IMG/VR virus record: IMGVR_UViG_2531839252_000007
Direction: 5' to 3' (one strand)
Origin: a virus
Lineage: Duplodnaviria; Heunggongvirae; Uroviricota; Caudoviricetes
DNA length: 12,956 bases
In this document: positions 1 to 12,338 of the stretch, piece after piece
Position numbering within the stretch: position 1 is the stretch's first letter
Layout of the letters: each line of letters opens with the position of its first letter
The notes under the pieces: model-generated
Databases searched by the model: none
Told to the model about the DNA's origin: nothing
The model's input: the letters and a program-made list of their open reading frames with translations, nothing else
Program-made: the position numbers and the translations under genes

Positions 1-1260
1 ATGGCAAAGCTGACAGATATCCAAATCAAGTCATGGATTAAGGCAGGAGAGCGCTTCGAGGGGCGCTCTGACGGCAACGGGCTATACCTTCGCTATCGAG
101 CGGGGGATAAAGTGCCTGTATGGCGTTTTCGATATCAGTTCGCTGGGAAATCACGGGTAATGCTTATTGGATCTTATAGCGAAATATCCCTTTCCAAAGC
201 ACGGGAAATAGCCAAGGAATTATCCGCACGTGTAGCCCTAGGCTTCGATGTCGCCGGGGAAAAGAAAGCGCGAAAAGCGGCTGCTATAGAAAAGATGGAG
301 CGGGAGAAAAACGCGCTTCGCGTGTCAGAGCTAGCAACCGAGTATTTCGAACGGCAGATTTTGGGACGCTGGAAACATCCCGATCTTCTGCGCCGGAGAA
401 TCGATAAGGATATCAACCCACATATTGGCAACATGAAGATAGAGGACGTAAAACCCCGTCATATTGATGCGATGCTACAGAGCGTTGTTGATCGTGGCGC
501 TCCAACCGTAGCTAATGACGTTCTGCGCTGGACTAAACGCATATTCGATTATGCTATCAAGCGTCATGCACTGGAATTAAACCCAGCTGGAGCATTTGAT
601 CTGTCAGACGCTGGCGGGCAGGAAAGTAGCCGTATGCGCTGGCTGACCCGTGAAGAACTTATACGTTTTTTCCAAGCTATGCGCACTGCAAAAGGATTCA
701 GCCGCGAGAACGAGCTGACCATGAAGCTAATCCTCTGCCTGTGTTGTCGCAAAATGGAGCTGTGCGGTGCTCAGTGGGATGAATTCGACCTTGATGAAGC
801 AGTGTGGCATCTACCAGCAGAACGCGTTAAAAACGGCGACGCTATTGATATACCACTACCTCCACCTGCGGTTGGTTGGTTGAGAGAGCTTCGCACTATC
901 GCGGGCAGTGGGAGTAAATGGGTTCTCCCCGCGCGGAAGATGCAACACCGCATGATTCCCCACATTCAGGAAAGCACACTCCCCGTGGCGCTGGCAAAAG
1001 TACGCCGCGAAATGCCAGAAGTACCAAACTTCACAATTCACGATTTCAGACGTACCGCCCGCACCCATTTAGCGGCGTTGGGTGTCGATCCCGTAGTCGC
1101 AGAACGTTGCCTGAATCACCGCATTAAAGGCGTTGAGGGTATCTACAACCGCCACCAGTACTTTGAAGAACGACGGGCAGCCCTGGAACTGTGGGCGGGG
1201 CTTCTGGTTTCGCTTGAACGAGGGGAAAACTACAATGTTATTCCTTTATCTAAAATATAA
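1..1260 (+). CDS. int: Tyrosine recombinase / phage integrase, P4-like family
   Basis: 419-aa ORF. The N-terminus (MAKLTDIQIK...GNGLYLRYRAGDK..WRFRYQFAGK) is typical of P4-type integrase N-domains. C-terminal catalytic signatures HDFRRTARTH (H-x-x-R) and GIYNRHQY (catalytic Tyr region) are present. The window begins exactly at the start codon, so promoter and att site lie outside it. Confidence 0.93.
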   Translation: MAKLTDIQIKSWIKAGERFEGRSDGNGLYLRYRAGDKVPVWRFRYQFAGKSRVMLIGSYSEISLSKAREIAKELSARVALGFDVAGEKKARKAAAIEKMEREKNALRVSELATEYFERQILGRWKHPDLLRRRIDKDINPHIGNMKIEDVKPRHIDAMLQSVVDRGAPTVANDVLRWTKRIFDYAIKRHALELNPAGAFDLSDAGGQESSRMRWLTREELIRFFQAMRTAKGFSRENELTMKLILCLCCRKMELCGAQWDEFDLDEAVWHLPAERVKNGDAIDIPLPPPAVGWLRELRTIAGSGSKWVLPARKMQHRMIPHIQESTLPVALAKVRREMPEVPNFTIHDFRRTARTHLAALGVDPVVAERCLNHRIKGVEGIYNRHQYFEERRAALELWAGLLVSLERGENYNVIPLSKI

Positions 1261-2513: not shown

Positions 2514-2670
2514 GCCGGTCCTGCTGTCCGCCGAGCAGATGCAGGCCATACGCAACATTCAGGAACGTGAACGCCAGCGCTCCAATCTCGGCGTCGCTCC
2601 CACCGTTCACCAGATTGCCCGCGGCCTCATGGCTAAGGCTCTGGCCTCACTGGCAAGCGAGGGCGTGTAA
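2494..2670 (+). CDS. Small hypothetical protein (58 aa), possible DNA-binding or adaptor protein
   Basis: The ATG at 2494 has a GGAG Shine-Dalgarno 8 nt upstream. The track ORF 2401-2670 is trimmed to this start because the longer version would overlap the previous gene by over 100 nt. Its stop overlaps the next start (TAATG). Confidence 0.55.
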   Translation: MRKPNVKPVLLSAEQMQAIRNIQERERQRSNLGVAPTVHQIARGLMAKALASLASEGV

Positions 2671-3341
2671 TGGGCGCCATTCACCAGATATATGAGCAGG
2701 AAATGTTCTATAACTGGATAGGCGATGGTAAACGATGTGTAGCATTCCACGAAGCGGGCCATGCAGTAGCCGCATGGCTTATTCGCTTAGATATGCAGGT
2801 TATCGCCATTATGGATGAATCCGGCTACGTTGCTGGCGAACATGTACATGAAGCCCAGTGTTTGGGCGTTGTTAAACACGGCATAATCCACAACCACGAT
2901 CTCAGGCGTTTGCGGGAGAGTAAATCTGGTGTAGTTGGGCACGATGGCAAAGTTATCCCTTTCATACGCTACTACGCGGAAGGTATAAAACGCGATGCAA
3001 CAAAGGCCGCTTTTGTAGCCCTCGCTGGACCAGTAAGCGAAGCCCTTTACGAAAATAACGAAATTTTCAATAAAAAGTATTCACTCCCTCACCGCTATGA
3101 CATGGCTAACGTAAATGACATGCTCGATTTAATATGTGCCACGGATAAGCAAATTAACAGGAAGTTAATGCTTTCTAAACTTGTTGAAAAGACCAAATTC
3201 CTCATGACTCAATACTGGCCGGAAGTAGGAAAAATAGCGCATTTGCTTGAGCGGGATAACATTGTTAATGGGCGCGATGTTAGCTCGCTAATCGGCCTCA
3301 ACGTCATTGACCGGGCAACGCCATTTTTGCTGGCGGAATAA
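2670..3341 (+). CDS. Standalone zinc metalloprotease-like protein with HEXXH motif (FtsH / M41 protease-domain-like)
   Basis: AFHEAGHAVAAW motif at residues 26-37 (HEAGH at nt 2748-2762) resembles the FtsH active-site helix. Downstream LAGPVSEALYEN resembles the FtsH LAEE region. No AAA+ ATPase or transmembrane segment is present. Start is coupled to the upstream stop. Confidence 0.75.
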   Translation: MGAIHQIYEQEMFYNWIGDGKRCVAFHEAGHAVAAWLIRLDMQVIAIMDESGYVAGEHVHEAQCLGVVKHGIIHNHDLRRLRESKSGVVGHDGKVIPFIRYYAEGIKRDATKAAFVALAGPVSEALYENNEIFNKKYSLPHRYDMANVNDMLDLICATDKQINRKLMLSKLVEKTKFLMTQYWPEVGKIAHLLERDNIVNGRDVSSLIGLNVIDRATPFLLAE

Positions 3342-3417: not shown

Positions 3418-4476
3418 ATGATGAATAATTTAATCAATCGCATTGCTTTAACCTTTCTAGCGTTAGTACTCACAGGCTGCACTGCGGGGAAAATCGATCC
3501 CGCAAAAGCGTTAACACAAATGCATATCGTCAAAAGTGATGACTATAAGAAGCGCCCCGGCTGGCCTGCGTTGGTTCGTCTGGGTACTGACGATTGTGAG
3601 ACATACAAAAGTGGCGGCGGTAGCCTCTTTAAGTGGGACGGGCTGACGTGCAACGACAAAAGCATTATCCTGGCGGTTAATAGCAAACCACAGACCATTC
3701 CAGTGTTCTACGCTGCTTACCATGAATACGGGAGCTATGGGGTCGGGGAACTATCCAATTTTGACAATAGCACCCGAACAGGTGAGGAAGCCTCGAAGAT
3801 TCTGGTTAACCTGACCACAGTATTGAACAATCCGGCAAAAGTTGACGCTATCTATGCTGACTATGAAAAGGATCGTTGGAGCATGGGACTTGGTACAGTC
3901 AACGAAAGCGATTTTAAAAAGAGCCTGGCTACTTTTGCTCAGGAACGGGATAAGCTTGCCTCTGAATACCATAAATTACGTGACGCAAACCAAAAGAGAT
4001 ACCTAGCTGAACGGGACGAACGAATCAAACGTGAGAAAGAAGAGGCCATGGCCTCTGAAAAAACGATTGATCTCGTGTTATGGCAGAATCCAACAGTTGA
4101 GCAACAGATGGTTGTTGACGCTCTGCACACTATTAAATTCACAATAAGAAACGATGGCGTGGCATACGCTAACGGTCGCCGATTTATGTCAATTGCCGGG
4201 ATGGAATATCTCAGGAATAGCCTAGCTCTGAGTATGGAGTCATGTTCAGACGCTGGGGCATATGTTGGTGATACGGCATTAAATCGCGCATGTATTCAGG
4301 GCTTGGCGAGGAACATTGTTGAGTGGGGGAAAACCGCCAACGACCGTTCTATTTCAGACAGAGCATGGAACGCAGCCGCAATGGATGGCAGCATTAACTA
4401 CAACCCAATCAAGTATGAAATCCTGTTTTCACATTGGGCAGGAATGGCCCGTGTCTACTCTGCTCGTGGATATTAA
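3418..4476 (+). CDS. Lipoprotein (352 aa) with signal peptide, lipobox and charged coiled-coil-like segment
   Basis: The N-terminus MMNNLINRIALTFLALVLTGC has a hydrophobic core and an L-T-G-C lipobox. An AAGGA Shine-Dalgarno lies upstream. The middle region KLRDANQKRYLAERDERIKREKEEAMASEK is coiled-coil-like. Confidence 0.85.
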   Translation: MMNNLINRIALTFLALVLTGCTAGKIDPAKALTQMHIVKSDDYKKRPGWPALVRLGTDDCETYKSGGGSLFKWDGLTCNDKSIILAVNSKPQTIPVFYAAYHEYGSYGVGELSNFDNSTRTGEEASKILVNLTTVLNNPAKVDAIYADYEKDRWSMGLGTVNESDFKKSLATFAQERDKLASEYHKLRDANQKRYLAERDERIKREKEEAMASEKTIDLVLWQNPTVEQQMVVDALHTIKFTIRNDGVAYANGRRFMSIAGMEYLRNSLALSMESCSDAGAYVGDTALNRACIQGLARNIVEWGKTANDRSISDRAWNAAAMDGSINYNPIKYEILFSHWAGMARVYSARGY

Positions 4477-4526
4477 ACACTGCGCTTCGAACTGATAAAT
4501 TTAAGCTTAATCAGTACATTACTGTT

Positions 4527-4552
4527 AGCCCGCATTTTAGCGGGCTTTCTTT
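4527..4552 (+). terminator. Rho-independent terminator after the lipoprotein gene
   Basis: Stem AGCCCGC(4527-4533), loop ATTTTA, stem GCGGGCT(4540-4546), followed by TTCTTT. Confidence 0.7.
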
Positions 4553-4569
4553 AGTTGAGCTTTGTACAA

Positions 4570-4585
4570 GATGTAAATTTACATC
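4570..4585. repeat. Perfect 16-bp palindrome GATGTAAATTTACATC
   Basis: Self-complementary and AT-rich. It sits between convergent genes, about 35 nt past the stop of the minus-strand peptidase gene. It could be a minus-strand terminator hairpin or a binding site. Confidence 0.5.
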
Positions 4586-4618
4586 CTGATTATCCAGTGC
4601 GCCGTAAAAGCTGGCAAT

Positions 4619-5731
4619 CTATTTAACTAAACGTAAATGTGACGGGCGTATCCCCGATTCCTGGGTACTCGATTTTCCACCATTGATAGCTTCCATAAAG
4701 AAGCTGTTACTGAAAGTAAGTGCACTCGCTTCGTCCGCAGGTAACCTCAACTGCTCGAGAATATCTCCCCTTTTAACGCCTTTGCTGCGTAGGGCTGAAA
4801 ACACTTTATCCAGCACTAATGACTTTTCACGTTCAGCAATCCCTTGAGGCTCACTCGTACGATATCCACGGCGAGCAAGTTCTATCGATAGCTGTCGATA
4901 ATGCCATTCGGTAGATAAACCGACATCAAACGTACGGCGCACCAAAGCCGCCAATGATACCCGCCAGTTCTTTTTTAACGAGATGAGTAGATCAAGCGAT
5001 GGCATTCTTGGCACTAAAGCTAAAATACTACGCTCAGGCATCAAAAAGGCCGATGCGAATCGATCTGCATCCTGCTCAGCTTGGCGGCCGTTGTTAGTTG
5101 AATGTTTATGGAGAACCAAGTGCCCCAGTTCATGAGCTGCATCGAATCGACTACGCTCCGGCGTTTTCATTGTATTCAAAAGCACAAAAGGTTTTTCATC
5201 CATCCAGAAAGAAAAGGCGTCTACTTCAATACAATTTTCCGCGAGAGAGAACACACGGACCCCATTAGCTTCAAGAAGATGGACCATGTTAGAGATGGAT
5301 AATTCACCTATCCCCCAACTTTCTCTAACCACGCGAGCAGCTCGCTCAGGCTCAGAATAACCATCGAAACTACAATCAGGTACATTAGGTTTAGGAAGCT
5401 TAAACTGCCCGTCAATCCAAGCTGATAGCTCTTGCGCGAGCTTTCCGGCTCCGAGTGCTGAGTCCCTTTTCTGTGCCGTCAACTTTGTCATTGCACGGAA
5501 ACTAACGGCTTCTGGCGACAGAGTAGGTACATCCCTGTCGAGGAAGAACTCAATCGGATAGCCCAGAACAGCAGAAATCCGTTCCATGGTATCGCTGGCT
5601 ATGGCATCAAAAATCCCTGCTTTCTCGTAATTCGAAATCGTCTTACTAGTCAATTCTGTAGCTTCAGCTAAAGCTCTTTGTGTCAGGCCTCTCCGTTCTC
5701 TGGCTATACGTAAACGCTCTGAATTAAACAT
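4619..5731 (-). CDS. XRE-family HTH fused to ImmA/IrrE-type (M78, COG2856-like) zinc metallopeptidase, with C-terminal extension of about 130 aa
   Basis: N-terminal HTH LTQRALAEATELTSKTISNYEKAG. HELGH at residues 200-204 (nt 5120-5134, verified by reverse-complement translation). Followed by EQDADRFASAFLMP, the characteristic ImmA/IrrE E-x-x-A-x-x-F-A-x-x-x-L-x-P signature. Starts 9 nt after the upstream gene stop. Confidence 0.9.
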   Translation of the reverse strand: MFNSERLRIARERRGLTQRALAEATELTSKTISNYEKAGIFDAIASDTMERISAVLGYPIEFFLDRDVPTLSPEAVSFRAMTKLTAQKRDSALGAGKLAQELSAWIDGQFKLPKPNVPDCSFDGYSEPERAARVVRESWGIGELSISNMVHLLEANGVRVFSLAENCIEVDAFSFWMDEKPFVLLNTMKTPERSRFDAAHELGHLVLHKHSTNNGRQAEQDADRFASAFLMPERSILALVPRMPSLDLLISLKKNWRVSLAALVRRTFDVGLSTEWHYRQLSIELARRGYRTSEPQGIAEREKSLVLDKVFSALRSKGVKRGDILEQLRLPADEASALTFSNSFFMEAINGGKSSTQESGIRPSHLRLVK

Positions 5732-5740
5732 GGTGCATAT

Positions 5741-6460
5741 TTAGCCTGTTTTTAAAATGTCGAGATCGATATCCGGTGTAAACTGCGGTACATCACCGTT
5801 CTGAACAATAGGGTCAGGTTGATGAGGAGCAATAATTAAACGTGTGGAGAAGGCATTAACTACATTCTTGTTATTGTATGAAATCGGGCGTGAAAGCTCA
5901 GCTCGGATCCCCACGCGCTCATCCCCGTCAATTTCATAAAAATCGTAAAGTAAAAACCATAAGTCCAGTCCGATTTTATTCGGTAGCAGTGGTATAACAT
6001 CACCTTCCGGCATGTCTAAATCCAGCTTAAGCTGGCTATCATCCAGGATAAGCTCACCCTGACCCGGGGTGTTATTATGGATTAACCCCATCAGCTCACA
6101 AGTAAAATCACCTTTCTTCATGCGAGACTCAGGAAATCCATGAACCAAACCTGTCTGATCACACCCCCGGCAGAGGTAAAGGGCAACTTTATCACTTACA
6201 GTCAGTTCAACATTTCGCAGGGACAGACGTTTGTAGCCTTTCGGAGCCAGAATGTCGCGGGCTGCACTCACCCCCTCACCATAGAAATATTGCCCACGTG
6301 AGGTCTTGGGGTGATTCTGAGTCGTCGAATAACGACCAGACAAGCCACGCTCAAGAATACGCCTGAGATCACTTTGGCTCAGATTCAGGGACTGCAGGTA
6401 GGATTCAACATCGTCAGGATCTGCCAAAACAATGGTTTTTGCGAGATTATGAGAGTACAT
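5741..6460 (-). CDS. Hypothetical protein (239 aa), first gene of minus-strand cargo operon
   Basis: ATG at 6458-6460 with an AAGAGG Shine-Dalgarno 8 nt upstream. No recognisable family. Co-oriented with, and 9 nt upstream of, the HTH-peptidase gene. Confidence 0.8.
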   Translation of the reverse strand: MYSHNLAKTIVLADPDDVESYLQSLNLSQSDLRRILERGLSGRYSTTQNHPKTSRGQYFYGEGVSAARDILAPKGYKRLSLRNVELTVSDKVALYLCRGCDQTGLVHGFPESRMKKGDFTCELMGLIHNNTPGQGELILDDSQLKLDLDMPEGDVIPLLPNKIGLDLWFLLYDFYEIDGDERVGIRAELSRPISYNNKNVVNAFSTRLIIAPHQPDPIVQNGDVPQFTPDIDLDILKTG

Positions 6461-6485
6461 CGGAAAAGCCTCTTATATATTTTCT

Positions 6486-6520
6486 ATTTTTTATACCTCA
6501 TTTGAGGTTTAAAAACAAGA
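6486..6520 (-). promoter_or_regulatory. Candidate promoter of the minus-strand operon with palindromic operator in the spacer
   Basis: On the minus strand: -35 TTGTTT (plus 6513-6518), 17-bp spacer, -10 TATAAA (plus 6490-6495). The spacer contains the inverted repeat ACCTCA-tt-TGAGGT (6495-6508). Confidence 0.45.
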
Positions 6521-6666
6521 AAATCACTGTATAAAATCTCAGAGATAATCGACAGATTAGAGAGTATTATCCATATTGAGGCTATCCCGACGGGGAGAAA
6601 AGCGGCTACGCCTTGCCGCCTGCCTCCCCCATTATCTCAAGGCGGTGACGTGTAAGGCGAACGTGC

Positions 6667-7485
6667 ATGAGTGGTTTTGTTTTTCCTTTCGAGTTTCAAC
6701 CAGTGCCAGAGGCATTGGCAATCCTGAACGACATGGATATTGCTCCCTTTGAAATAACCGAAAAACACCTAGAAAGCTGGTGGGCGGAGGGGAAAATTCA
6801 ACTGTGCTTTAACTGGGGTAGATTCTGGAAAGCTGGCTTAGCCGACGAACTGGCAAAAACAGAAGGCTACGCAGAATTAGGGGCGAAAGAAAAGATCACT
6901 GCGCTCAATGCTGTATCCGCTTCCCCCGAGGCTAACATCAGTCTTGTCGTGCCATCTTACAGCGATTTAAGTTTTATCTGGCGCGGGCATAGCGACGATC
7001 CACTCCCCTGTATCGAGGCCAAACCCTACGGGCTTGATCAACCTTTTGTTATCAAACGCGTTCCTCACACCTGCGAGGACTATTGCGATTACGGTACGCA
7101 GCATTGGGAAAAACTTTACCATTCGCTGCACATTTCGAGTATGGTGCTGCCGCGTGCTGAAGCTGAAAAAATTTATTATCTCTGCAACCCTACAGCTATT
7201 CCAGGCATGGACGAAAAGACGGCATCTGCAGTATCTGCGAAAACGGTTAACTATCTGGCCACTGCTTTAAAAGCTTTTATTCACATCCATTACGGGGCTG
7301 ATGTGGCGGACAACCTGCGCAAACATCTTGAGGATCCCACCAGTGATATACGGAAAGACTTTGCGAATAAAGGGATCAAAGCGCCAGGTGGAAAAGCGCT
7401 GGCCAGCCATCTGAAAAATATTCTGATTGAAGTTTTACCCGCGCTCGACAACGTCGATGTGGAGAGTGACGCTGGTAATACATAA
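6667..7485 (+). CDS. Hypothetical protein (272 aa), divergent from the minus-strand operon
   Basis: Coding-like ORF with AAGG about 9 nt upstream of the ATG. Contains a Cys/His-rich patch HTCEDYCDYGTQHWEKLYHSLH. No recognisable family. Confidence 0.7.
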   Translation: MSGFVFPFEFQPVPEALAILNDMDIAPFEITEKHLESWWAEGKIQLCFNWGRFWKAGLADELAKTEGYAELGAKEKITALNAVSASPEANISLVVPSYSDLSFIWRGHSDDPLPCIEAKPYGLDQPFVIKRVPHTCEDYCDYGTQHWEKLYHSLHISSMVLPRAEAEKIYYLCNPTAIPGMDEKTASAVSAKTVNYLATALKAFIHIHYGADVADNLRKHLEDPTSDIRKDFANKGIKAPGGKALASHLKNILIEVLPALDNVDVESDAGNT

Positions 7486-7547
7486 CCCCGGAACATTCCA
7501 TATATTCCGACGCATTAGAATATTCCAGAGCCCATCACCATAACCTT

Positions 7548-7581
7548 GCGATTACCTTCTCACTCAATAGCAGGTAATCGC
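7548..7581 (+). promoter_or_regulatory. Inverted repeat GCGATTACC/GGTAATCGC overlapping the alpA ribosome-binding site
   Basis: 9-bp arms at 7548-7556 and 7573-7581 with a 16-nt spacer. The right arm ends at the base before the alpA ATG. Three TATTCC-like repeats lie upstream at 7494-7526. Confidence 0.4.
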
Positions 7582-7794
7582 ATGAAATCGCAAACTTTCA
7601 CCTTTCCCACCAATGGCAACGCACGAGCCAAACAAGTGGCGCACTATCTTGGAGTGCATATCAGCACCGTATGGCGCTATGCAAAACGTCCTGATTTTCC
7701 AAAACCCCACCAGTTAACCGACGGCGTGACCGTCTTTGACGCCGCAGCTATTCGCCAATGGAACAAGCAAAAAACCGGGGGTGAGAATGCTTAA
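7582..7794 (+). CDS. alpA: AlpA-family (P4 Vis / CP4-57 AlpA-like) small HTH regulator or excisionase
   Basis: 70-aa product MKSQTFTF...VAHYLGVHISTVWRYAKRPDFPKPHQLTDGVTVFDAAAIRQWNKQ matches the AlpA/Xis-type pattern (LGVs.sTvWR...FP.P...W...I..W). An in-frame start also exists at 7546. Confidence 0.85.
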   Translation: MKSQTFTFPTNGNARAKQVAHYLGVHISTVWRYAKRPDFPKPHQLTDGVTVFDAAAIRQWNKQKTGGENA

Positions 7795-7848: not shown

Positions 7849-8043
7849 TCAGGCTTTCGGCTCAATACCCAGCCGCTGGAGTTCTTTGCGCCCCAAGGTT
7901 TTCATCCAATTAGCTAAACTCATACCTGCATCTCGTGCGGCGGCCTCGAATTGCTCTTTCAATTCTGGGGCGATCCTCACTTGGAAAGCTGGTGCCTTTC
8001 CCCTGCCTTTGGGCTGTTTATCACGCTGTATTACTGTTGACAT
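7849..8043 (-). CDS. Ribbon-helix-helix (CopG/Arc-like) small DNA-binding protein, likely repressor
   Basis: 64-aa product from M18 of the track ORF; the upstream AGG gives a better ribosome-binding site than the 8094 start. FQVRIAPELKEQFEAAARDAGMSLANWMKTLGRKEL fits a strand-helix-helix pattern. Divergent from the replication operon. Confidence 0.6.
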   Translation of the reverse strand: MSTVIQRDKQPKGRGKAPAFQVRIAPELKEQFEAAARDAGMSLANWMKTLGRKELQRLGIEPKA

Positions 8044-8177
8044 GTATGTACCTATTAAACTAAGATTCAAATCAATAGGTACGCACCTTAACATGTTAAG
8101 GTCAGAAAAGACAACGCCCCGTATGTGTTGCGAGCACTACGGGGCGTCTAACCAACAACGTTACGGAGACTAACGCT
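8044..8177. promoter_or_regulatory. Densely structured control region between the RHH gene and the replication operon
   Basis: Inverted repeat GTACCTATT/AATAGGTAC (8048-8056 / 8074-8082). Perfect 16-bp palindrome CCTTAACATGTTAAGG (8086-8101). GC-rich inverted repeat ACGCCCCGTA/TACGGGGCGT (8114-8123 / 8138-8147). Confidence 0.5.
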
Positions 8178-9047: not shown

Positions 9048-9268
9048 TGCCACGCAAACATCGCTCATCAAGCAACCTGATCAAATTAATGGAACGCCAG
9101 AAAGGTATAGGGCGCGACGATATCCAGATCGCAGATAATCGCCCTACATTCATGCCGTACGAGCCGAACGGAACCTACGCCACAAACCGCCATACCCGCC
9201 GTATGCTACGCAAGCTCCACGGCATCCAGGCAAAAAGAATGTGTGATCTGAAAGGAGGTCAGAAATGA
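9047..9268 (+). CDS. Small basic hypothetical protein (73 aa)
   Basis: AGGGAGG Shine-Dalgarno upstream. TAATG start/stop overlap with the upstream gene and ATGA overlap with the primase gene. Confidence 0.65.
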   Translation: MPRKHRSSSNLIKLMERQKGIGRDDIQIADNRPTFMPYEPNGTYATNRHTRRMLRKLHGIQAKRMCDLKGGQK

Positions 9269-11679
9269 TTGGATTCGATCACCTGATGGAGCAGGGGCAG
9301 AAACGCACCCCTGCTCGTTTTACTGCAAATAGCTTTTCTGACCTGTGCAACGCTATTCTATCGCATCGTGTGCAAATTTCCATCACCCCAGAAATGACAG
9401 ATGAAGAGCGACGTAAGGAAAAGCAGAAACTGTACTGGTTCTCGGCAACTACCCAGCAGGACGGGCAGCGACGTAAACCCGAAAACATGGCACCGTGTGC
9501 TTTCGGTATGCTGGACATTGACGGCAGCACTCCCGGTGCAATCACAGCACTTGTACAGGTGTTCCGGCGATACTCAATGCTGGTGTACCAGACGGCCAGC
9601 TATACGGCGGATGAACCTCGTCTGCGTATTGTGTGCGAGCTTTCCCGAGCGGTTGAATCTGACTACCGCCGAGCGACAGGCGAATCCATAGAAACTTTGT
9701 TGATGCAGGAGGCTGGATTCTCATTCGCCAGCCTGGCGGATAAGAAAGCACGCTGGGAGAACGGCAGCGATTATGTTGTCTTTGACCGCAATGTATACGG
9801 CGCTCAAAGCTATTGCTACTGTCCACACTCTGGAGCGAAAGCCCAGAATTACGCGGGCGCGGTAATCGACGTAGGGGCGTTACCGGAACCCGCCCAGCTA
9901 CCAGCGAAGGCGGCCAAAAGCAAGGCAAAGAAACAGCGCCAGCGTGACGCCGCGGCGGTAATAGATGCTGATTTTGACGATCTGAGCGCCGGACCGGATA
10001 ACTTCCTTATCGCCGACCTGCGCAGCGCACTCTGGTTTCCCTCCATGCTGCAAAAGGCATGGGACAATGGGGCGTGGATTGAGCAGGGCTACCGCCTTGC
10101 ATCTCTCAAAGGCACCGATTTTGAGGACGACGCGCGGCAGCTGTGGGTCGAGTGGTCATTGACCGCGGCGGATGGCTGGCCTGATGAAGAACTTGATGAA
10201 GTCGCAGCACAACGCTGGGATGGTCTCGCCCCTGACAAAACCAGCTATAAAGCTATTTTTACTGATGCTCAGGCGCAGGGGTGGAATAATCCGAGCACAT
10301 GGCGAGCAAAGGCCGCGTACATTGAGAAAATGGCCCCCAGCACACGCGGTGAACTGCTAGCGCAATATTACGGCAACGTATGCCTGAAAGCTGATGGCAA
10401 CATGGTTTATCACTATACCGGGCAGGGGTGGGAGCACATCGCCGATGCCGAGTTGCGCCGCCAGCTTTCGCATATTTTCAAAGATAACGGGGTCCCCTTT
10501 ACACCGTACGAGGTTAAAAGCGCGATTGAGGCTATGGGAATGCTTCTGCCTTTAATGGGAGAAACTCCTCGTAACCTGATTGGCTTTGCCAACGGCGTTT
10601 ATGATCTCGAGGCGCAGCGATTCCGCCCCCACTGCCCAGACGATTGGCTGACCAGCCATAACGGCGTTGAATACACGCAACCGGTTAAAGGCGAAACCCT
10701 GAAAAACAATGCCCCAAACTTCTGGCGCTGGCTGCATCATTCCGCAGGGGGCGACTTCGACAAAATGGAGAGAATCAAAGCCGCTCTGTATATGGTGCTG
10801 GCAAACCGCTACGACTGGCAACTGTTCATCGAGGTTACCGGTGCTGGTGGCAGTGGTAAAAGCGTGTTCACGGGTATTGCACGTATGCTGACGGGCGAAC
10901 TACACGCCACCAGCGGCACAATGGAGGACATGGACACCGCGCGCGAACGCGCATCTTTTGTCGGCAAAAGCCTGATCACCCTACCCGACCAAGCAACATA
11001 TACGGGTTCCGGGCCGGGTATCAAGGCTATAACGGGCGGCGACGTGGTAAGGATCGACCCAAAGCACGAAAAGCCATTCCATACGGTTATTCGCGCCGTT
11101 GTCATCGCAACAAACAACGAACCTATGCGTTTCACCGAACGACAAGGCGGGATATCGCGGCGCCGGGTTATTTTCCCGTTTAACCATGAAGTGCCGGAGG
11201 CGGAACGTGATCCCCATCTGCTCGATAAAATTAAAGCCGAACTGCCGGTAATCGTCCGTGGTCTGCTGATTGACTTCGAACAGCCAGGCAAAGCCAAATC
11301 GCTACTTATCGCGCAGCGTGATTCAGCGGAAGCGCTGCAGGTGAAGAACGATAACGACCCGATGTATGGCTTTTGCTCTTACCTGCTAGGTTTGCCGAAT
11401 CCCGAGGGCATGTACATGGGCGATGGGCGCATGGCGCGAGAGCCACGCATCTACCTCTATCATGCTTATCTGGCCTATCTGGAAGCCTACGGTTATCAGA
11501 GAACCCCCACCCTGCCAAAGTTCAGCGGAGATTTACGGGACACGCTCAAAGCCTTTGGTATTACTCTGGACAGTAAAAAGAGTAAAAAGGGCAAAAGATA
11601 TAACGTCAATTTGTCTGACAGGGCACAAGAATGGCTGGGAGAAGACGAACTCTCAGCTGTGCCCGACACATTGCAGTAA
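9265..11679 (+). CDS. Replication primase/helicase (N-terminal AEP/prim-pol-like domain, P4-family/D5-like SF3 helicase domain)
   Basis: 804 aa with an AAAGGAGG Shine-Dalgarno. Walker A VTGAGGSGKS at residues 526-533 (nt 10840-10863) sits in the middle, as in P4 alpha and D5-type helicases. N-terminal MLDIDG (nt 9508-9525) is an acidic D-x-D motif consistent with an AEP-type primase. Confidence 0.85.
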   Translation: MIGFDHLMEQGQKRTPARFTANSFSDLCNAILSHRVQISITPEMTDEERRKEKQKLYWFSATTQQDGQRRKPENMAPCAFGMLDIDGSTPGAITALVQVFRRYSMLVYQTASYTADEPRLRIVCELSRAVESDYRRATGESIETLLMQEAGFSFASLADKKARWENGSDYVVFDRNVYGAQSYCYCPHSGAKAQNYAGAVIDVGALPEPAQLPAKAAKSKAKKQRQRDAAAVIDADFDDLSAGPDNFLIADLRSALWFPSMLQKAWDNGAWIEQGYRLASLKGTDFEDDARQLWVEWSLTAADGWPDEELDEVAAQRWDGLAPDKTSYKAIFTDAQAQGWNNPSTWRAKAAYIEKMAPSTRGELLAQYYGNVCLKADGNMVYHYTGQGWEHIADAELRRQLSHIFKDNGVPFTPYEVKSAIEAMGMLLPLMGETPRNLIGFANGVYDLEAQRFRPHCPDDWLTSHNGVEYTQPVKGETLKNNAPNFWRWLHHSAGGDFDKMERIKAALYMVLANRYDWQLFIEVTGAGGSGKSVFTGIARMLTGELHATSGTMEDMDTARERASFVGKSLITLPDQATYTGSGPGIKAITGGDVVRIDPKHEKPFHTVIRAVVIATNNEPMRFTERQGGISRRRVIFPFNHEVPEAERDPHLLDKIKAELPVIVRGLLIDFEQPGKAKSLLIAQRDSAEALQVKNDNDPMYGFCSYLLGLPNPEGMYMGDGRMAREPRIYLYHAYLAYLEAYGYQRTPTLPKFSGDLRDTLKAFGITLDSKKSKKGKRYNVNLSDRAQEWLGEDELSAVPDTLQ

Positions 11680-11700
11680 CTTGTAAAAAATCACCAAGAA

Positions 11701-11722
11701 CCCCGTAAATCGGGGCTTTTGT
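11701..11722 (+). terminator. Rho-independent terminator after the primase/helicase gene
   Basis: CCCCG stem, TAAAT loop, CGGGG stem, then CTTTTGT, starting 22 nt after the stop. Confidence 0.7.
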
Positions 11723-11741
11723 CTATTTATTAGTCTGAAAG

Positions 11742-11852
11742 GGTGAACAGGTGCGCATACCTTAACAAAGCTGTTCACTCTAATAATTTTCTTTAATATC
11801 AGTACACTACCCGCAATAAGTGAACAGATGGACGGGGTGAACACTTCACACC
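11742..11852. repeat. Second iteron cluster (TGTTCACC family); putative crr-like cis replication region
   Basis: GGTGAACA at 11742-11749 and 11836-11843 (perfect reverse complements of TGTTCACC). TGTTCACT at 11772-11779 and AGTGAACA at 11819-11826 (one mismatch each). Degenerate CTTCACACC at 11844-11852. Confidence 0.6.
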
Positions 11853-12338
11853 TATAGCGCGAAATATTTTAATATTTGCAGTTGAATTGCAATCCTTGAA
11901 AACAGAAACGCGTAGCAAAACGTAGAGTGCTGAAAAAATTTTGTTGGGGAGCAGTTCAAACTGCATGAGCAATTTTCAAGCACTCCTCTTTGTCTTGTAC
12001 CCAAGACTGTACCCAATAGAAAAAATAGAAAATAAAAACTCAGCAATAGCAGCGATTGGTGCCACTACTCAACATTCAGATTCATAAGCGACATATCTCC
12101 GTAGGCCGTTGTTAATTACAGCGGCGCTACGCATATAGTTTCGTCCTCATATTTATTTACTCCATACTTTTTCTAATGCATTTTACTTATCACAAAATCA
12201 GAAAAATGCATTCTTACTACAGAAAATAGCAATTTCACATAACTACAAATTATCAATCTATTCTCTCCTTAAAAAATCTCAATCGTGACAATGCGCACAA
12301 ATCGCTACCCTTCCAGACAGATTTTTAGGGAGAGAACC

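Follow-up and report, generated by a model that had tools for sequence, protein, structure and literature searches.

A gene pair on a P4-related island of Escherichia coli is the RosmerTA antiphage toxin-antitoxin system

The rmrTA operon and its identity with RosmerTA

The window analysed here is the entire 12,956-nt stretch of tailed-phage-labelled DNA held as IMG/VR record IMGVR_UViG_2531839252_000007. On its minus strand, it carries two adjacent genes, rmrT and rmrA, which encode the toxin and the antitoxin of RosmerTA, a toxin-antitoxin (TA) system that protects E. coli against phages (Table 1). Both open reading frames (ORFs) and the 9-nt gap between them are located as described in an earlier note made from the sequence alone, which had read the pair as a candidate novel defence or toxin-control module. 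The start codon of rmrT is preceded by the Shine-Dalgarno sequence AAGAGG, of which GAGG is kept in the species alignment. On inspection of the sequence, no obvious Shine-Dalgarno sequence was seen for the second ATG, that of rmrA, in the spacer ATATGCACC. A 9-nt spacer that has no clear ribosome-binding site suggests that rmrT and rmrA are translationally coupled. The GC-rich hairpin found between rmrA and the convergent gene was rated as a terminator on the plus strand only by the terminator scan, though it may form the end of the rmrTA transcript as well.

The two encoded proteins were compared directly with those of the RosmerTA system described by Millman et al. in 2022 (bioRxiv 10.1101/2022.05.11.491447), where it is among the defence systems reported. 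RmrT is identical at 239/239 residues to the RmrT of that study (IMG gene 2658042941), and RmrA at 370/370 residues to its RmrA (IMG gene 2658042940). In Table S2 of the preprint, the system is entered as SG158 'RosmerTA' from E. coli OLC-716, with a 2192-bp insert and the sequences of both proteins, and is marked 'v'; in Table S11, the RmrT/RmrA pair is marked 'Verified'. According to the preprint, SG158 under its native promoter, assayed at 37 °C, provides phage defence in E. coli. The gene pair in the window is the type example of this antiphage TA system and is already known, and the novelty suggested for it in the earlier note falls away. The authors of the preprint also report that transformation with a ΔrmrA construct failed, 'possibly due to toxicity', and given this attribution RmrT is read as a toxin restrained by RmrA.

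The 399 nt of the insert that are given in Table S2 map exactly to the minus strand of the window from position 6667. From this start and the stated length, the cloned fragment would begin at the first base of the divergent gene and reach as far as the end of the convergent one, taking in the hairpin as well as the promoter and palindrome described below, and leaving out the divergent 272-aa gene. The proteins, the promoter region within the 399 nt given, the gene order and the spacing are the same in the window and in SG158, with no difference detectable. The host strain may be the sole difference, as the locus is present in 10 complete E. coli genomes at at least 99% identity.

The PADLOC models for the system were matched by both proteins. 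RmrT matched PDLC03935 (E = 1.1e-52) over profile positions 3-205 of 207, and RmrA matched PDLC03949 (E = 1.3e-149) over its full length. The locus has the make-up that defines RosmerTA, namely an adjacent co-oriented pair in which a Zn-peptidase RmrA, usually with an N-terminal helix-turn-helix (HTH), accompanies a catalogued RmrT partner. Profile searches of Pfam, NCBIfam and PHROG returned no match for the 239-aa protein, in agreement with the earlier statement that its family is not recognisable, but PADLOC does recognise it and names it RmrT. The RefSeq labels for the two products are still generic ('hypothetical protein' and 'helix-turn-helix domain-containing protein'), which accounts for the impression of novelty gained by a reader of the sequence only. 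Nevertheless, that reader's functional interpretation, an antiphage module in which an HTH-M78 antitoxin or switch governs the product of the upstream gene, was right in kind and agrees with RosmerTA.

Table 1. Features of the window, with positions counted from its first nucleotide
Feature	Position	Strand	Description
rmrT	5741..6460	-	239 aa, toxin of RosmerTA (ORF list, PADLOC, sequence identity)
rmrA	4619..5731	-	370 aa, antitoxin: XRE HTH, conserved linker, M78 Zn-peptidase, conserved C-terminal extension
rmrT-rmrA spacer	5732..5740	-	9 nt, ATATGCACC
Shine-Dalgarno of rmrT	6469..6474	-	AAGAGG
Proposed RmrA operator	6479..6524	-	46-bp two-fold symmetric element, 19/23 symmetric positions
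-35 hexamer	6513-6518	-	TTGTTT, inside 46-bp element
-10 hexamer	6490-6495	-	TATAAA, inside 46-bp element, 17-nt spacing to -35
Core palindrome	6495-6508	-	ACCTCA-aa-TGAGGT (ACCTCAttTGAGGT), inside 46-bp element
HTH_3 (XRE/Cro-C1) domain	5543..5713	-	RmrA residues 7-63, Pfam PF01381, E = 4e-9
Peptidase_M78 (ImmA/IrrE) domain	4934..5272	-	RmrA residues 154-266, Pfam PF06114, E = 9.3e-21
RmrT C-terminal tail	5744-5821	-	residues 214-239, predicted disordered
SG158 cloned fragment	4476..6667	-	2192 bp; 5' end exact match, 3' end from stated length
Hairpin	4527..4546		GC-rich, between convergent genes rmrA and 3418-4476 (terminator scan)
Divergent gene	6667-7485	+	272 aa
Integrase gene	1-1260		P4-type, Arm-DNA-bind_3; the island runs from here to the primase gene
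223-aa protein gene	2670-3341	+	FtsH-like zinc motif AFHEAGHAVAA; Pfam Peptidase_M41 E = 3e-4, below cut-off
352-aa protein gene	3418-4476	+	predicted lipoprotein, LTGC lipobox; convergent with rmrA
alpA	7582-7794		AlpA (Phage_AlpA)
81-aa ORF	7849-8094	-	antisense, between alpA and icd-like gene; Pfam HicB E = 0.0015, below cut-off
Primase gene	9265-11679		D5_N/Pox_D5; RefSeq 'phage/plasmid primase, P4 family'

Linkage of the pair and conservation of its putative promoter

The distribution of the pair was examined in a scan of one genome per species, in which RmrT relatives (39-88% identity) were identified at 15 loci, from Enterobacterales, Photobacterium, Shewanella, Pseudoalteromonas and Vibrio. 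At each of the 15, an RmrA relative (58-87% identity) lies directly downstream on the same strand in the same tight, toxin-first arrangement. The same pairing was found for three remote RmrT relatives (24-28% identity), located on a metagenome contig, an Acinetobacter phage-labelled contig and a Sphingomonas plasmid. By contrast, the divergent gene, which the earlier note had considered as a possible member of the system, was not beside rmrTA in any of the 15 other species loci. As it also lies outside the published insert that confers defence, it was rejected as a part of RosmerTA.

A profile search with RmrT against 1.84 billion representatives recovered 1,916 clusters (defined at 50% identity) at E <= 0.001, including 1,118 at E <= 1e-10, and most matches are full-length proteins of 210-225 aa. 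The PADLOC RmrT model was matched by 70/70 diverse RmrT homologues, and no Pfam family was matched by any of these 70. The rmrTA locus is rare in complete E. coli genomes (11/5,426), and the two E. coli loci examined for context are in the same island, adjoining yicC.

A diverged rmrTA copy of about 77% nucleotide identity was seen in E. coli 20220828076 (NZ_CP151161.1, positions 5934-7790 of locus L019). It is located in a different island, where it adjoins IS26/ISCR2-floR resistance DNA and is near an integrase at the ffs locus, and this indicates that even within E. coli the module is passed among elements of different types. In Xenorhabdus khoisanae (positions 3962-4534 of locus L011), the rmrT homologue appears truncated or interrupted, with an in-frame stop near its start and an alignment restricted to residues 59-239, and the rmrA gene downstream of it is intact. 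This locus may represent decay of the toxin with retention of the antitoxin.

The promoter TTGTTT-17-TATAAA, suggested earlier for the operon, was not listed by a consensus promoter scan, because its -35 hexamer agrees with the consensus at only 3/6 positions, but was retained on account of its conservation, as it is invariant across 13 species. Upstream of rmrT in these 13 species lies a near-invariant block, which consists of TTTCTTGTTTT, 4-5 nt and CTC-N4-GAGGT-(A)TAnAAnA...AGrAAAT. Within it, TTTCTTGTTTT and CTC-N4-GAGGT are invariant at RmrT identities down to 39%, and beyond the block the sequences further upstream are unrelated between species. The arms of the palindrome are kept, and only its central four bases vary (AAAT, GAAT, AATT, ATAT, GGAT, AAAC or GATC).

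The palindrome ACCTCAttTGAGGT, which had been pointed out in the earlier note, was confirmed at its position, and the window holds a single copy of it where 0.03 would be expected by chance. It forms the core of a 46-bp element with two-fold symmetry that reaches well past these 14 bp, and in Enterobacterales conservation includes the outer half-sites, ATTTTCT/AGAAAAT. The symmetry of 19/23 positions observed in E. coli was reached by 0/100,000 shuffles, and in the other species 14-18/23 positions of the 46-nt sequence are symmetric. The layout fits an HTH repressor that acts as a dimer or tetramer and blocks the promoter of its own operon, and the 46-bp element is therefore likely to be the operator of RmrA. 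The earlier proposal that the palindrome serves as an operator is strengthened by its conservation across species, but is still a proposal.

Properties of RmrA and RmrT and the proposed control of the toxin

RmrA is a fusion of an XRE-type HTH domain with an M78 Zn-peptidase domain, as recognised previously, and both domains score above the Pfam gathering thresholds (HTH_3, 36.8 bits versus a cut-off of 23; Peptidase_M78, 74 bits versus 22). The HELGH motif at residues 200-204 (nt 5134..5120) is invariant in 10/10 orthologues, and EQDADRFASAFLMP corresponds to residues 219-232. A C-terminal extension is present as claimed, but is shorter than the approximately 130 aa given for it, with 104 aa beyond the Pfam M78 match, the first ~20 of which are still aligned with the HTH+M78 structure 9vzy. 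Conservation spans the whole length of the protein; it covers a ~90-aa linker (VSFRAMTKL...) and, up to about residue 345, the C-terminal extension. The nearest relatives in the PDB are the uncharacterised HTH+M78 protein 9vzy (E = 1.6e-10) and CapP (7t5t, E = 9e-7). For the individual domains, profile matches were obtained between the HTH and the ImmR, HipB and SinR structures, and an IrrE orthologue was also matched. In PADLOC, RmrA additionally matched capP (E = 3e-20) and capH (E = 5e-7). The same HTH plus peptidase architecture is found over RmrA residues 1-295 in the spr1629 family (NCBIfam NF052239), named for the spr1630/spr1629 system of Streptococcus pneumoniae, which is linked to clpX essentiality. 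As RmrA scored 130.2 bits against this model, far under its curated cut-off of 335, it is a relative rather than a member of that family.

RmrT is an acidic protein (isoelectric point 5.1). Its maximum 19-residue hydropathy is only 1.03, and it consequently has no predicted transmembrane segment and is, as judged from its sequence, soluble. A membrane toxin similar to the RmrT of Gordonia phage Kita was therefore rejected. In an AlphaFold2 model built from 26 sequences (predicted local distance difference test score, pLDDT, 77; predicted template modelling score, pTM, 0.74), three helices and then a β-sheet make up a confidently predicted core, and confidence is low in the loop at residues 134-159 and in the tail at residues 214-239. 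The predicted fold is weakly similar to PD-(D/E)xK restriction endonucleases, with no significant match. Sequence and profile searches of the PDB with RmrT likewise gave nothing significant, the best match being BfiI (2c1l, E = 0.15), which was taken as noise. P110, E188 and R207 are invariant across the family, and GD..TG, KG..T and ELS.P are conserved motifs. In the family alignment, these conserved residues do not spell the canonical D...(D/E)xK catalytic pattern, and the nuclease reading is offered as a lead only. The C-terminal tail is predicted to be disordered (pLDDT below 50), and F227, I231 and I235 within it are invariant or near-invariant across the family, with PDIDLDI in RmrT and a consensus of PDIDI.I. 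Given these conserved hydrophobic positions within predicted disorder, the tail probably resembles a short linear docking motif for RmrA or for a protease or protease adaptor.

The organisation of rmrTA recalls TA pairs that have been studied directly. Vmi480/Vmi470 from MGIVmi1 of Vibrio mimicus, a validated TA pair (Luo et al. 2015, PMC4671572), also has the toxin gene first and a gap of 5 bp, and its antitoxin, of 362 aa, likewise joins an N-terminal HTH to a Zn-peptidase. Vmi480 is lethal alone and neutralised by co-expression, and the antitoxin gene could not be deleted (PMC4671572), as for rmrA. The Vmi480 toxin is 198 aa long compared with 239 aa for RmrT, and the likeness between the two is one of architecture. 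A further pair, E101_02645/E101_02644 from a prophage of E. coli E101, makes clpP essential, and the toxin substitution T46S suppresses this (Rousset et al., bioRxiv 10.1101/2020.05.25.114553). This pair likewise combines a toxin that has no predicted domain with a downstream partner; identity is 33% between the toxin and Vmi480 and 42% between the partner and Vmi470 (bioRxiv 10.1101/2020.05.25.114553). In the preprint by Millman et al., the E101 work is cited for the Zn-peptidase-antitoxin configuration (bioRxiv 10.1101/2022.05.11.491447), and later work terms the E101 toxin an RmrT. Through the diverged E. coli homologue H11, the E101 toxin could not be tied to the RmrT family, since its protein accessions are not the ones that the paper gives, and the connection to the RmrT of the window is a putative one. 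The RmrTA of Gordonia phage Kita (Ernits et al. 2023, PMC10440598) also pairs an ImmA-type RmrA with a toxin and provides narrow antiphage defence in E. coli. However, the Kita toxin (node D5) depolarises the membrane and has a C-terminal region predicted to be membrane-localised (PMC10440598), and it belongs to another family than the RmrT of the window.

It is very likely that the locus operates as RosmerTA, with RmrT as a toxin under the control of RmrA. In the mechanism proposed, rmrT and rmrA would be transcribed from TTGTTT-17-TATAAA and translated in a coupled fashion, and the XRE HTH of RmrA would bind the 46-bp symmetric element covering the -35 and -10 hexamers, such that the operon is autorepressed. 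RmrT would be a soluble effector that acts in the cytoplasm and does not depolarise the membrane, with an α/β core faintly like restriction-endonuclease folds, and its tail would dock onto RmrA or a protease. Neutralisation may proceed via proteolysis, with the M78 domain of RmrA either processing RmrT or holding it for removal by ClpXP. This route is proposed because clpP or clpX is made essential by RmrT/RosmerTA systems or by systems of the same architecture; among Pectobacteriaceae strains, only those carrying RosmerTA require rmrA and clpX. Phage infection would interrupt neutralisation, and free RmrT would then halt the cell before phages are released, as in abortive infection. The most specific version, in which RmrT would be a divergent PD-(D/E)xK-like toxin that targets nucleic acids and is restrained by RmrA-dependent proteolysis and ClpXP, while RmrA autoregulates via the 46-bp operator, is put forward as speculative and is improbable in this full form.

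The role of the M78 domain could be a different one. In the ImmA/ImmR, IrrE/DdrO and CapP/CapH systems, the protease cleaves the HTH repressor and not an effector, and as HTH and protease are fused in RmrA, the conserved ~90-aa linker between them could be a cleavage site. RmrA might then neutralise RmrT by stoichiometric binding and transcriptional repression only, with the M78 domain serving as a sensor that, upon a phage or DNA-damage cue, is inhibited or cleaves the HTH or linker of RmrA itself, and with neither action on RmrT nor dependence on ClpXP. Such an arrangement does not alone explain why clpP or clpX is essential in hosts of related systems, and is considered somewhat unlikely, though it is the main alternative. 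The resemblance to these switches also raises the possibility that RmrA is a damage-responsive regulator of the ImmR/ImmA or CapH/CapP type acting on another gene, for island excision or induction or for the divergent 272-aa gene, with the 239-aa protein as an accessory. The PADLOC and PDB matches of its HTH and M78 domains, and a candidate operator in the divergent intergenic region shared with gene 6667-7485, would agree with this. In ImmR/ImmA (ICEBs1), IrrE/DdrO (Deinococcus) and CapH/CapP (regulators of CBASS antiphage systems), an XRE HTH repressor and an M78/COG2856 metallopeptidase form a signal switch, as in RmrA, but they are separate proteins, the repressor is cleaved and other genes are transcribed, whereas RmrA is one fused 370-aa protein with an obligatory toxin partner. 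The HTH and M78 domains lie in a single ORF and no regulated neighbour is conserved in the 15 species loci, where RmrT is always present and the divergent gene is always absent. Moreover, the cloned fragment defends without the divergent gene, the pair moves among unrelated element types, and the failure to obtain ΔrmrA, attributed in the preprint to possible toxicity, is unexpected of a pure regulator. Regulation of a neighbouring gene by RmrA is thus largely excluded, and this explanation is very improbable.

A further possibility is that the pair, in its native setting, chiefly serves addiction or stabilisation and so prevents loss of the island from the chromosome, phage defence from a plasmid being a side effect. 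The architecture is that of a classic toxin-first, type II-like module, related pairs are carried by plasmids and mobile islands, rmrA is essential by transposon sequencing (Tn-seq) in strains that carry the system, and the antitoxin could not be deleted according to the preprint. Against this, defence is reported there with the native promoter, and RosmerTA was discovered via its enrichment in defence islands. The addiction and defence roles are also not mutually exclusive. Addiction as the main role is therefore judged unlikely, and control of a defensive toxin, RmrT, by RmrA is preferred.

The island and the significance of the system

In E. coli, rmrTA is cargo on an island located between yicC and yicG that carries an integrase, AlpA and a P4-family primase. 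The pair is placed among other unannotated cargo genes in the interval from the integrase gene to alpA. The earlier description of the element as P4-like is supported by the P4-type integrase, AlpA, a gene between integrase and primase that RefSeq names as Icd-like, and the P4-family primase, but psu, sid and delta were not detected, as the other ORFs of the island had no PHROG or Pfam match of that kind. A complete P4-like satellite was accordingly dropped as a description, and the kinship of the island with P4 is confined to its genes for integration and replication. Its right junction differs between strains: in E. coli DEC5B (positions 15281-17032 of locus L001), dinD lies between the island primase and yicG, and in the window (11680-12284) and in strain MS 16-3 dinD is missing, with ~600 nt from the primase gene to yicG.

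The neighbours of rmrTA are themselves largely without assignment. The divergent 272-aa protein has no match in Pfam, NCBIfam, PHROGs or PADLOC. The genes for the 223-aa protein with an FtsH-like zinc motif and for the 352-aa predicted lipoprotein follow one after the other next to rmrTA, and neither product has a PADLOC, PHROG or NCBIfam assignment; together, they could be another defence or exclusion module. The 81-aa ORF, which has a weak HicB/ribbon-helix-helix-like match and coincides with a shorter hypothetical protein in RefSeq, may encode a repressor of the island's own.

A study from 2022 already cloned and named exactly these sequences and showed their defence against phages, and defence-finding tools detect them, so that the locus has no value as a discovery. 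What is added here is the linkage of the pair in 15 loci and three remote relatives, the exclusion of the divergent gene, the size of the family, the predicted solubility and fold of RmrT, and the 46-bp element. In the papers searched, no mechanism was found either for this family of RmrT proteins or for the RmrA peptidase, and the residual value of the locus is mechanistic, concerning how phages are sensed by RosmerTA, the activity of RmrT and the substrate of the M78 domain. Leads are provided by the conserved putative operator, the soluble and restriction-enzyme-like predicted fold, the conserved disordered tail, and the link to ClpXP in related systems. Should the reading of RmrT as a nuclease toxin prove true, a family of about 1,900 protein clusters that Pfam does not model would gain its first mechanism.

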